From: Amoebidium appalachense
Lineage: Eukaryota; Protista; Ichthyosporea
DNA: 64,000 nucleotides
Assembly (NCBI GenBank): GCA_963693365.1
Contig: CAVNZM010000017.1
Coordinates: forward strand, 5,322,708 to 5,386,707
Reading direction: 5' to 3'
The translations under genes were made by a program, and so were the position numbers. Under the pieces are notes generated by a model. That model searched no databases and had not been told where the DNA came from. It was given only the letters and a program-made list of their open reading frames with translations. This document shows, one piece after another, positions 28,118-64,000 of the stretch. The number at the start of each line of letters is the position of its first letter. Position 1 is the stretch's first letter.

Positions 28118-31100
28118 CTACATAGTCACGGTTACTTCGACGGCCAGGGTCTGATCCAGACCCAGATAGCACGCAGACATAACATACAAGTGAAGTTTCA
28201 TCGCACCTCCAATGACCATGTCTGCAGGCGGTACAAAGAACGCAAGGGTGTCCGTTTTACGCCTGTGTGTATACATAAGTCAGTGAGAGGGGAAAGGGAG
28301 AGGGAGAGGGAGAGGGAGAGCGAGATAGGGTGTGTGTGTGTGTGTGTGTGTGTGTGTGTGTGTGTGTGTGTGTGTGTGTGTGTGTGTGTGTGTGTGTGTG
28401 TGTGTGTGTGTGTGTGTGTGTGTAAATTAAATTCTTCTACAGAGAGTGGAACGTGCTGAATATGAGTGGGTGCAAGTAAAATTAATTGCTAAATGGGGGA
28501 AAGGCCTGTTGGAGGGAGAGGGAAGGGCCAAAAAAACAAAAAAACAAAAGAAAAAAAAAACTAAAACAAAACTAAAAAAAAAACGAGGGAGAATGAAAGC
28601 AAATGAAGGGGGAGGAAAAAAGGGTGGGGAAGGGGATGGGAAGGAGGGAGGGAGAGGGGGGAGAGGGAGGGAGGGGGGGGGGGGGGGGGGGGGGGGAAGG
28701 GGGTGCAGGGGAAGCAAAATAGAAAGAATCAAAATAATGAATCACGGGGACATACCCAGCACTCAGCCGCTTGACTGCCAAAAGTTCATCCGTGTCTGCG
28801 TTGGCCAAAACGAGAAACCATTCCTCAGGAACCGGCCGGGGCCACTTCTGTGCATATGCTTCCTTGCGTGGCCGCTGTGTGTGTGTGTGTGTGTGTGTGT
28901 GTGTGTGTGTGTGTGTGTGTGTGTGTGTGTGTGTGTGTGTGTGTGTGTGTGTGTGTGTGTGTGTATGTGTGTGTGGGTGGGGAGGGGAGGGGTGGGGAGG
29001 GGAAAGGTTTTTGTGTGTGTGTGTGTGTGTGTGTGTGTGTGCGTGTGTGTGTGTGTGTGCGCGCGTTAATGTGTGTGTGTATGTATGTATGTATGTGTGT
29101 GTGTGTGTGTGTGTGTGTGTGTGTGTGTGTGTGTGTGTGTGTGTGTGTGTGTGTGTGTGTGTGTGTGTGTGTGTGTGTGTGTGTGTGTGTGTGTGTGTGT
29201 GTATGTGTTGGTGTGGGGGGGGGGGAGGGGGGGGGGGCATAGATATTGATAAAGGCGGGGTCAACTGTGGTGAAATAAAGGCGTGAAGCCTTCACAAAAT
29301 TTGCGAGGCGTTTCTTGTGAATATCTGGTACTTTTTATAGCTGACAAAGTGTGCGTTTCCGAACACTTTCCTATGAGACAAAAGCACAATGCATAGTCTC
29401 CTATCGGAGATATCTCGTACAAGTCATTATTAATTCAGTGGTGTGTTTGAAGATTGGGTAATTGTTTGAAAAACGGGGTGGGGAAGGAGGGGGGGGGGGA
29501 GGGAGGGGAAAGGGGAGATGCCGCTAACCCAACTCACCCAACCCACTATCCCCATCCCCACCCCCCTCCCCTTGCCTTCACATATGGGTGATGAACACGT
29601 CGAAATACATAAAATAGGACAAATAGGCAAACATTGAAACATACAGTTGCTAAATTACACCAAAAAACCCCACCTTATCAGGGAAATTCAGGGTGACCTC
29701 CAGTGCACAGTCATCCTCTGGCCGGATGGCCCCGTCGTCTCTGCTGCCGCTCACCTTGGCCCCCACCTGCAGCTGTGGAAGCCTCGAAATTGCATCCATA
29801 ACCTATAGGACCCCCCCCCCCCCCAATATCATCCACATGGTTAGCATTCTTGCATCCAAGCCTCCCCCTCCCCCCCACCCCCCCCGGACCCCAGTATCCC
29901 TCTAGCCTAGTCATCGTTTCAGCCCCCCCCCCCCCCCCCCCCCCCCCCCCCCCCCACAAAAAAAAAAAACCTCCTCCCCATTTATTAAAAAGACCTTCAG
30001 TCGAAAATCCTGAAAACAATTCACATAAAAAGGTTCACCAAAAAAACCAACAAAGCTCACGTTTAGCAATGGTGTATGTATATCTATCCGTATGCATGTA
30101 TCCAAAAATATCAGCATATAGCGCCCCATTCCACCCACCTCCTTTGCCTGCTGAGTGCCCAGTGACCCTTTCAGCATGTTGGAGATATTCCAGCTTGGTT
30201 TCTGGGATAGGTCTACCAACTGTTCGAGCGATTCGATTGGTCCATTCGGCCCCTTGAAGAGGCTCAGATGTTGCTCGTCGACATTGGGGAGAATCATGAG
30301 GGGAGAGTCCGTGTACCACCGTGCCTGTGTGTGTGTGTGTGTGTGTGTGTGTGTGTGTGTGTGTGTGTGTGTGTGTGTGTGTGTGTGTGTGTGTGTGTGT
30401 GTGTGGGCACGCGCGCGCGCGTACATATGTGTATGAGGGTGTGTTCACCAGCACATATGCGGATGTGTGTGTGTGTGTGTGTGTGTGTGTGTGTGTGTGC
30501 ACGTGCATGTGCGTGGCCAATGGCAAAGGGAGGATGTTAGTTGGTTGTGGTTTGCTGGTTCAGAACAAAATTCTCTTCGGAAGCACTGGAGTAGATGATA
30601 CTTGAACGGAAAATATGAGATATGGTGTTCTCTGACACAGGAAGAAACAGGAAAATAATGAAATCGAACGTCGTGCAGATACTGCCTAGATGTGTGTGTG
30701 TGTGTGTGTGTGTGTGTGTGTGTGTGTGTGTGTGTGTGTGTGCGCGCGCGCATGTACATGTGTGTGCGTCCGATGTTGGTGTGTGCATTTGGAGGCATAG
30801 AGGGAGGGGGAAAGGGACGGGGTGGGTATCAGGGAGAGGTGGAGGCAGAGGCAGAGGGAGCGGGAGAGAGATGGTGTGAGGACGAGGGACAGAAAGAAGT
30901 TTTTTCTTTAAAAAGGGGGGAGAGGGAGGGAGGGAGGGGGGAGGAGAGGGGTGGCATACCTGGATAATCATCTGGAGGAGGGTAATGATGTTGAGACAGG
31001 CAAAGGTCAGTCCACCCTCGGCAGCAACGTCAATCATAGCCTGTGTGTGTGTGTGTGTGTGTGTGTGTGTGTGTGTGTGTGTGTGTGTGTGTGTGTGTGT

Positions 31101-63472: not shown

Positions 63473-64000
63473 CTGTGTGTGTGTGTGTACGTGTGTGTGT
63501 GTGTGTGTGTGTGGCGGGAGAGATGTGTGTGTGTGTGTGTGTGTGTGTGTGTGTGTGTGTGTGTACGTGAGGGTGTGTGTCTGTCTGTGTGTGTGTCTGT
63601 CTGTGTGTGTGTGTGTGTGTGTGTGTGTGTACGTGAGGGTGTGTGTGTTGTGTTGTGAGTGTCCACGTGTCTCCATGTGAGTGTCCACGTCCGTGCACGT
63701 GCGCATGTACATGTGTACTTGTGTGCACTTGTCAGTGGCGAAATGTACGTGCGTTCACCGTGTGCGTGTGGGTCAAGCATGTAGAAGTTGGACGTGTGCG
63801 TACGACTGTGCCATGTGTACTTGTATGTTTTCGGAAGTTCCCGATTCTGTGTGAGTGTATCTGTATACCGATGAGGGAGAGCATGTGTGTGTGTGTGTAT
63901 GAACTTTTGTGGTGTGCTTGCTTGCATGCCTGCCTGTGTATGTGTGCGTGCGTAGAAAGTGCCCGTCTGTACACATAGCCATACAAGCTTCAACCAGGGG

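Follow-up and report, generated by a model that had tools for sequence, protein, structure and literature searches.

The stretch of DNA analysed here (the window) comprises 64,000 nucleotides (nt) of contig CAVNZM010000017.1 of the ichthyosporean Amoebidium appalachense, and carries the gene for ASCC3 on its minus strand and a kinase gene and an OGFOD2-like gene on its plus strand. Many introns of these genes end in CA dinucleotide repeats, (CA)n, that run into the acceptor AG, and it is these 3′ splice sites, referred to below as CA acceptors, that are considered here. The exons of ASCC3 were mapped by tblastn, using homologues found via one exon, and when joined form an open frame in which one single-base slip was allowed for.

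28118..63472, minus strand: ASCC3 gene; 1601 codons in 44 exons, the 5′ part of the gene lying beyond the window

The best of 120 homologues of the window protein is ASCC3 of Sphaeroforma arctica (P0012; 62.6% identity), and in a FastTree phylogeny of the window protein and 32 of these homologues, picked for taxonomic spread, Sphaeroforma is its sister (support 1.0), the pair being sister to a clade with animal sequences. A metagenome scan returned six loci at 42–57% identity, with no close relative among them, and these loci were left out of the analysis.

The donors of the 43 complete ASCC3 introns are all GT and their acceptors are YAG (Y, pyrimidine) in 42 cases and CG in one. The 3′ ends fall into two sharply separated classes. 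CA repeats cover at least 60% of the last 30 nt at 17 of the 44 ASCC3 acceptors, the CG site at 41368 among them, and at least 50% at 19 (18 of the 43 complete introns plus the acceptor of exon 63472), and 13 of the 44 end in a pure (CA)≥5-G. An earlier sequence-only reading of the window had put the number at about 20 of 44, which is slightly generous, although the class itself is real; the 12 ASCC3 acceptors that it named are all found where it placed them, with the reading frame kept, and its upper tract length of about 250 nt agrees with the longest pure tract (248 nt, at 43780). On the plus strand, the exons after the acceptors that it named start at 1483, 11588, and 12739, the positions it gave being the last intron bases; among 12 plus-strand acceptors called by hand, 11588 and 12739 are CA-type, 1483 has poly-C followed by (CA)7-G, and one near 193 is CA-rich. 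The tracts are listed below; 15 of the 19 in ASCC3 are placed by protein homology only.

63473..63578, minus strand: acceptor of exon 63472; (CA)n-CGTA-(CA)7-G, 106 nt AG-free; homology
60253..60300, minus strand: acceptor of exon 60252; poly-C then (CA)8-G; homology
57206..57404, minus strand: acceptor 57205; interrupted CA tract, TTAAC at -185; homology
55370..55605, minus strand: acceptor 55369; (CA)75-G, CTGAC at -215 within the AG-free zone; homology
54230..54684, minus strand: acceptor 54229; tandemly duplicated CA/TA tract with CATAG end, no YTRAY in 458 nt; homology
49841..49993, minus strand: acceptor 49840; CA tract; homology
48424..48476, minus strand: acceptor 48423; short CA tract, intron starting with (GT)n; homology
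47503..47820, minus strand: acceptor 47502; (CA)44-G, CTAAC at -296 with no intervening AG; homology
46346..46785, minus strand: acceptor 46345; (CA)32-G, four unused CACAG at -149 to -259; homology
43781..44029, minus strand: acceptor 43780; (CA)124-G, longest pure tract; homology
42912..43200, minus strand: acceptor 42911; CA tract, no YTRAY in 583 nt; homology
41369..41464, minus strand: tract upstream of exon 41368; (CA)47-CG, assembly slip or non-AG acceptor
38089..38333, minus strand: acceptor 38088; interrupted CA tract, CTAAC at -234; homology
35445..35604, minus strand: acceptor 35444; CA/CGTA tract; homology
33496..33540, minus strand: acceptor 33495; poly-C then short CA tract; homology (RNA reaches this exon's donor only)
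31773..31831, minus strand: acceptor 31772; (CA)29-G; RNA contigs
31041..31175, minus strand: acceptor 31040; (CA)47-G, CTGAC at -159, AAG at -118 skipped; RNA contigs
30325..30554, minus strand: acceptor 30324; (CA)40-G, CTAAC at -213 with no intervening AG; RNA contigs
28875..28975, minus strand: acceptor 28874; (CA)44-G; RNA loose-end letters
11447..11587, plus strand: acceptor of kinase exon 11588; CA/CGTA tract
12674..12738, plus strand: acceptor of the last kinase exon, 12739; (CA)24-G; frame inspection only
1468..1482, plus strand: acceptor of OGFOD2-like exon 1483; poly-C then (CA)7-G; frame inspection only

The statistics that follow come from one gene in one window, and many of the tests were made after looking. 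A CA context is found at 17 of 43 used acceptors. Among the AGs in introns that are not used it occurs at only 28 of 804 (p = 1e-12), and among unused YAGs at 21 of 312 (p = 6e-8); CA is likewise commoner at acceptors than in random intron windows (15%; p = 1e-4). The excess is not significant (p = 0.085) when the comparison is made with windows in the distal 40% of the introns (29%), but such windows contain the upstream extensions of the CA tracts themselves. The caution of the earlier reading that some (CA)n-G words are passed over also holds: 12 of 24 are unused at n ≥ 5, and 2 of 10 at n ≥ 20, so that the word is not sufficient as an acceptor code. These figures bear on the possibility that (CA)n is an active signal, bound by a CA-binding protein (hnRNP L-like or Y-box-like) or by a changed U2AF or SF1 that recruits U2. 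The sharp separation of the two acceptor classes is in keeping with such a factor, as is the fact that 8 of the 10 runs of at least 20 units ending in G are acceptors, whereas the unused words, the 23 of 32 runs of at least 20 units that do not abut an acceptor, and the range of pure terminal run lengths (4–248 nt, with no optimum) argue against it. YB-1 is also reported to bind CACC and to assist U2AF where the tract is weak (PMC3458536, in the part used here), whereas a mammalian CA-rich element at the same position represses through hnRNP L/LL, according to the sections of PMC6339879 drawn on here.

RNA evidence was provided by contigs of X1 and X2, two runs of one sample listed as 'RNA?', which cover 29210–32900 and extend into two loose ends, whereas X3 gave no match to the window; judged by their exon-only cover and joints, they are spliced RNA, and as contigs they give no isoform levels and drop rare isoforms. 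Alignment skips letters beside repeats, and the leftover contig letters were counted. At acceptors 31772, 31040, and 30324 the letters between mapped pieces number 11, 14, and 8, exactly as predicted, and at 28874 the contig's loose end agrees with the start of the exon over 30 of 30 letters. The CA acceptors reached by RNA are thus used as predicted in four of four cases, and the main contig of both X1 and X2 contains their four exons, within the limit that rare isoforms are dropped from contigs; the ordinary acceptors 32694 and 29802 were confirmed likewise. No U-rich alternative takes the place of the CA acceptors in the contigs over 29210–32900, and five CA-preceded decoy AGs in the RNA-covered introns are unused in the main contig.

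That the tracts were inflated by assembly, or the acceptors mis-called, is extremely unlikely. The assembly does contain a coding homopolymer slip near 44617, where a G5 run at 44613–44617 (minus strand) shifts the GAPTGSGKT motif one base out of frame. This is most likely a long-read homopolymer error, so that CA run lengths should be taken as approximate and may be imprecise. The CG in place of AG at 41368 points the same way, and is itself more likely an assembly error than a non-AG acceptor of a true GT-CG intron; at this exon (IRVVGLSTA) an AG 7 nt into the exon breaks the frame, and the preceding CAG lies 112 nt upstream. Set against these points are the agreement of the RNA contigs with all four CA acceptors reached, a frame that is open over 44 exons bar one slip, and a strand and position bias present in genes on both strands.

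In textbook 3′ splice-site recognition, SF1 and U2 act at the branch consensus and U2AF2 on the U tract. Within positions -46 to -10, YTRAY (R, purine) is present at 15 of 25 ordinary ASCC3 acceptors, compared with a background of 21% (p = 3e-5), and at none of 18 CA acceptors (p = 4e-5 against the ordinary class); the nearest YTRAY lies at least 145 nt upstream in the 17 strongest CA acceptors. Median U content is 0 in the CA class and 0.33 in the ordinary class, which is itself U-poor, with at least 80% pyrimidine in 4 of 25 and a T5 run in 8 of 25. The CA class thus lacks not only a U tract but also the branch consensus, a point absent from the earlier reading. Its proposal that CA replaces the polypyrimidine tract holds in so far as the U tract is absent, but what is displaced is the branch consensus near the AG together with a weak pyrimidine stretch. 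The AG-free zone has a median of 238 nt (minimum 51) at CA acceptors and 44 nt at ordinary ones. Competing CACAG is kept out of the last 100 nt: at CA acceptors, CA repeats cover 1260 nt of this region without a single CACAG, compared with 36 in 3875 nt elsewhere in introns, where occurrences are clustered rather than independent. Interruptions of the repeat that end in TA, giving TACAC, are concentrated in the same region (14 of 20 interruptions there versus 33 of 116 elsewhere, p = 6e-4), and TACAC is found in the last 40 nt of 7 of 9 impure CA acceptors; we take it to resemble the start of the TACTAAC branch consensus.

The distribution of CA follows the coding strand in the three genes compared. 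CA covers 15.0% of ASCC3 on the sense strand and 2.2% on the antisense strand, with corresponding values of 10.5% and 0.6% in the plus-strand kinase and 6.5% and 0.7% in the OGFOD2-like gene. The earlier statement that the repeat follows transcript orientation is borne out by this flip with gene strand, save for one exception at 25400–28000, between two minus-strand units, where CA occurs on the plus strand only (7.8% versus 0%); the region may hold an unseen plus-strand transcript, or may simply break the strand rule. The other two of the three intergenic stretches compared are strand-symmetric, at 1–4% per strand, compared with 17% of sense intron sequence (hexamer cover), a difference that favours a CA-binding factor; GT covers 2.5%. 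From the first to the last decile of the introns CA rises from 5% to 31%, and GT falls from 6% to 0. In CA-acceptor introns CA covers 7.8% of the 5′ half and 48% of the 3′ half, whereas the corresponding values in the others are 8.7% and 4.4%, and the 3′-ward gradient is confined to the CA-acceptor class.

The reading preferred here, with a rough probability of 0.45, is that the CA repeat acts as a spacer free of AG. U2 would branch either at a degenerate A inside the tract or at a consensus 150–400 nt upstream, and the first YAG downstream of the branch would then be taken as the acceptor. The tracts may have grown from the acceptor CAG via slippage and local tandem duplication, a growth that (GT)n at some donors would mirror. 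Such an origin is suggested because mirror-image (GT)n lies behind the donor in 5 of 43 introns and tandem copies of exon ends are present. CA tracts may be tolerated because the spliceosome of this organism would have little need of a U tract read by U2AF2; the ordinary acceptors, too, are poor in U. The long AG-free zone, the absence of CACAG from the last 100 nt, and candidate branch sites of two forms fit the spacer reading. One form is the TACAC made by TA-ending interruptions near the AG, and the other lies further upstream. CTRAC or TTAAC, a motif picked post hoc, occurs within the YAG-free zone of 8 of 18 CA acceptors where 4.1 would be expected (p = 0.024).

Several observations weigh against the spacer. 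CA composition alone accounts for part of the long AG-free zone, and within that zone CTRAC/TTAAC is found in 6 of 18 cases with 3.2 expected (p = 0.07). Plain YTRAY is not enriched in either the YAG-free zone (9 of 18, 9.2 expected) or the AG-free zone (6 of 18, 7.7 expected), YTRAY is absent altogether from the zones of 9 of the 18 CA acceptors (79–583 nt), and nine pure tracts of 58–248 nt (one of them the CG case) run uninterrupted near the exon; at these, the branch would have to form within pure CA or a factor would have to assist. In the gene model a canonical-looking CTGAC..CAG at -466/-449 of 43780 is passed over, and AAG is skipped at 31040 and 31772. Pyrimidine just upstream of the terminal CA blocks reaches at least 77% in 4 of 15, with no excess over other blocks (p = 0.78). 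Sense CA amounts to about 6% even in introns that have no CA acceptor, above the intergenic 1–4%, which a spacer role does not explain. The zones without YTRAY, the uninterrupted pure tracts, and the skipped decoy are the reasons for which a CA-binding helper is retained as a tentative alternative, less likely than the spacer. The CA acceptors are a variant of the U2-type acceptor; a mechanism that reads CA is plausible.

A more modest explanation is that the repeats are neutral passengers: microsatellites seeded by CAG would merely be tolerated, the acceptor being fixed by exon definition and by CAG followed by G, and the tract would add only the absence of AG. The genome is saturated with repeats, among them poly-C, poly-G, and tandem exon-end duplications, many CA tracts are unused, and the (GT)n behind some donors is the mirror image that such growth would leave. 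Exons after CA acceptors are also longer (median 123 versus 87 nt, p = 7e-4, one of several tests), as would suit exon definition; donor strength around CA acceptors does not differ (p = 0.48 upstream, 0.10 downstream). Neutrality leaves unexplained, however, the loss of the near branch consensus in 18 of 43 constitutive introns when 15 of the 25 others keep it, the clustering of TA interruptions near the AG, and the sevenfold excess of sense CA over sense GT, and it is considered quite unlikely.

Intron bridging of the kind known from zebrafish, with reversed polarity, was also considered. In this scheme donor-side (GU)n would pair with the acceptor (CA)n and so replace U2AF2, for which the zebrafish introns offer a precedent (PMC4691745, in the part used here). 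(GT)n stands at the start of three of the 17 CA-acceptor introns, and (GT)5+ occurs anywhere in 6 of 17, compared with 4 of 26 others; the remaining 14 of 17, however, have no (GT)n near the donor, and the low GT share of sense intron sequence beside that of CA tells against a partner for most tracts. Duplexes between an intron's own ends were not better in energy than permuted ones at 40, 80, and 150 nt, whether in all introns (p = 0.40, 0.38, 0.85) or in CA introns (p = 0.12, 0.10, 0.32). Since the paired 5′ and 3′ ends are no more stable than permuted ones, bridging is disfavoured and, as a general mechanism, very unlikely, although it may hold for a few introns such as 31654–31041. Pairing across exons reached nominal significance (p = 0.04) with just one of the three window sizes tried, 150 nt.

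Donors are very degenerate, with 29 hexamers among 43 (28756–63356). A C10 run is located at +3 to +62 of the donor in 17 of 43 introns, compared with 5 of 43 at 3′ ends, and a G10 run in 3 of 43; poly-C is commoner at weaker donors (rho = -0.33, p = 0.03), and is possibly a second repeat-based signal. At some ordinary acceptors G runs resembling REPA G-tracts shortly precede the AG (29803–29830, 58231–58250, 37383–37440, and 50529–50590, minus strand), including that of the RNA-confirmed acceptor 29802. ASCC3 introns often contain exon ends and acceptors copied in tandem. The kinase has Pfam support in three of three exons tested, one weak, whereas the Pfam match of the OGFOD2-like gene (plus strand) falls below the cut-off. 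Further features of the window are as follows.

48900–49560, 36085–36115, 42060–42200, and 59300–59560, minus strand: decayed tandem exon-end copies with donor or acceptor, inside ASCC3 introns
27908–28000, minus strand: the last ASCC3 exon's 3′ end present a second time, beyond the stop codon (tblastn match)
14940–17150, plus strand: block of about 400 nt present in duplicate; open reading frame (ORF) of 352 codons at 15900–16958
21300–25370, minus strand: apparent gene with introns and a low-complexity ORF (24295–25260); sense-strand CA tracts lie upstream of, not at, the acceptors seen

The ORF at 15900–16958 resembles the reverse transcriptase–RNase H end of a Ty1/Copia element, with no Pfam match for the frame submitted; Pfam gave no family for ORFs 24430–25257, 21422–21658, and 16080–16955.

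CA acceptors are real and, where RNA reaches them, supported by it, and they are apparently undescribed at such a scale; no report of CA-repeat acceptors in ichthyosporeans was found in the open-access literature, subscription journals lying outside the scope of the search. Approximately 40% of the acceptors in a conserved housekeeping gene of an animal relative are without either textbook signal within 145 nt, and the presence of both acceptor types in one transcript provides a built-in comparison for the minimal needs of the spliceosome at the 3′ end. The system also informs how microsatellites become, or escape becoming, splicing signals. For annotation, repeat masking hides CA acceptors, and the filter of one published survey drops pure (CA)nG sites by definition.

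Distant-branch-point introns, a small minority, have a long AG-free stretch and use the first suitable AG, with a strong pyrimidine tract right behind the branch; the CA acceptors share the long AG-free zone but half of them have no YTRAY within it. In zebrafish (AC)m-(GT)n structured introns, which make up 0.09–2.29% of fish introns, end pairing bypasses U2AF2 (Lin et al., 2016, PMC4691745). As described in the part of that paper used here, these are constitutive U2-type introns in which a dinucleotide repeat similarly fills the 3′ end and obscures the branch point and pyrimidine tract, but the repeat at the acceptor is GT and its pairing with donor-side AC is obligate, whereas in ASCC3 it is CA, in about 40% of introns, mostly with no partner. 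CaRRE and REPA elements likewise place CA-rich or purine-rich sequence right before the AG and are linked to more distant branch motifs; in the sections of PMC6339879 drawn on here they are short silencers of alternative exons acting via hnRNP L/LL or H/F, unlike the long tracts of ASCC3, which precede apparently constitutive exons and have no upstream pyrimidine excess. Diplonemid introns resemble the CA class in their C- or A-rich 3′ ends, rare YTRAY, and CA/CAC-rich MEME motifs, with U2AF1/2 present, but are short (medians 37–107 nt) and belong to an unrelated lineage, and the CA motifs are not placed at the AG in the sections of PMC12621601 consulted. Chlamydomonas has C-rich 3′ ends with simple-repeat motifs, and the CA-acceptor layout is not described in the part of PMC2830987 used, nor in the corresponding parts of PMC11244446, PMC5560861, PMC7314544, PMC6875170, and PMC5959245.

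A weaker CA signal is hinted at in Salpingoeca and Fonticula by published tables. A phase index for (CA)nG (A at even, C at odd positions before the AG) was computed for five species, from among 12 of the 1175 in Table S1 of PMC6339879 whose A and C rows were viewed. It is +0.028/-0.032 in Salpingoeca rosetta and +0.016/-0.028 in Fonticula alba, compared with +0.31/-0.29 in the window and +0.002/-0.001 in Sphaeroforma; Monosiga shows almost none and lamprey a small C term (-0.010). Inclusion in the table requires at least five purines at -10 to -3, and pure (CA)nG has four and is thereby excluded, so that the published values understate any such class and are not directly comparable with those of the window. 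The trait in Salpingoeca may therefore be commoner than the table shows. The boldest interpretation, speculative and doubtful at present, would be a second, genome-wide class of constitutive acceptor in which (CA)n stands in for the branch consensus and the pyrimidine tract alike. A CA-binding factor or a rewired U2AF/SF1 would read the repeat, and U2 would branch within it; such a signal might even be strong enough for a CG acceptor (41368), and Salpingoeca and Fonticula may have acquired the class in parallel.

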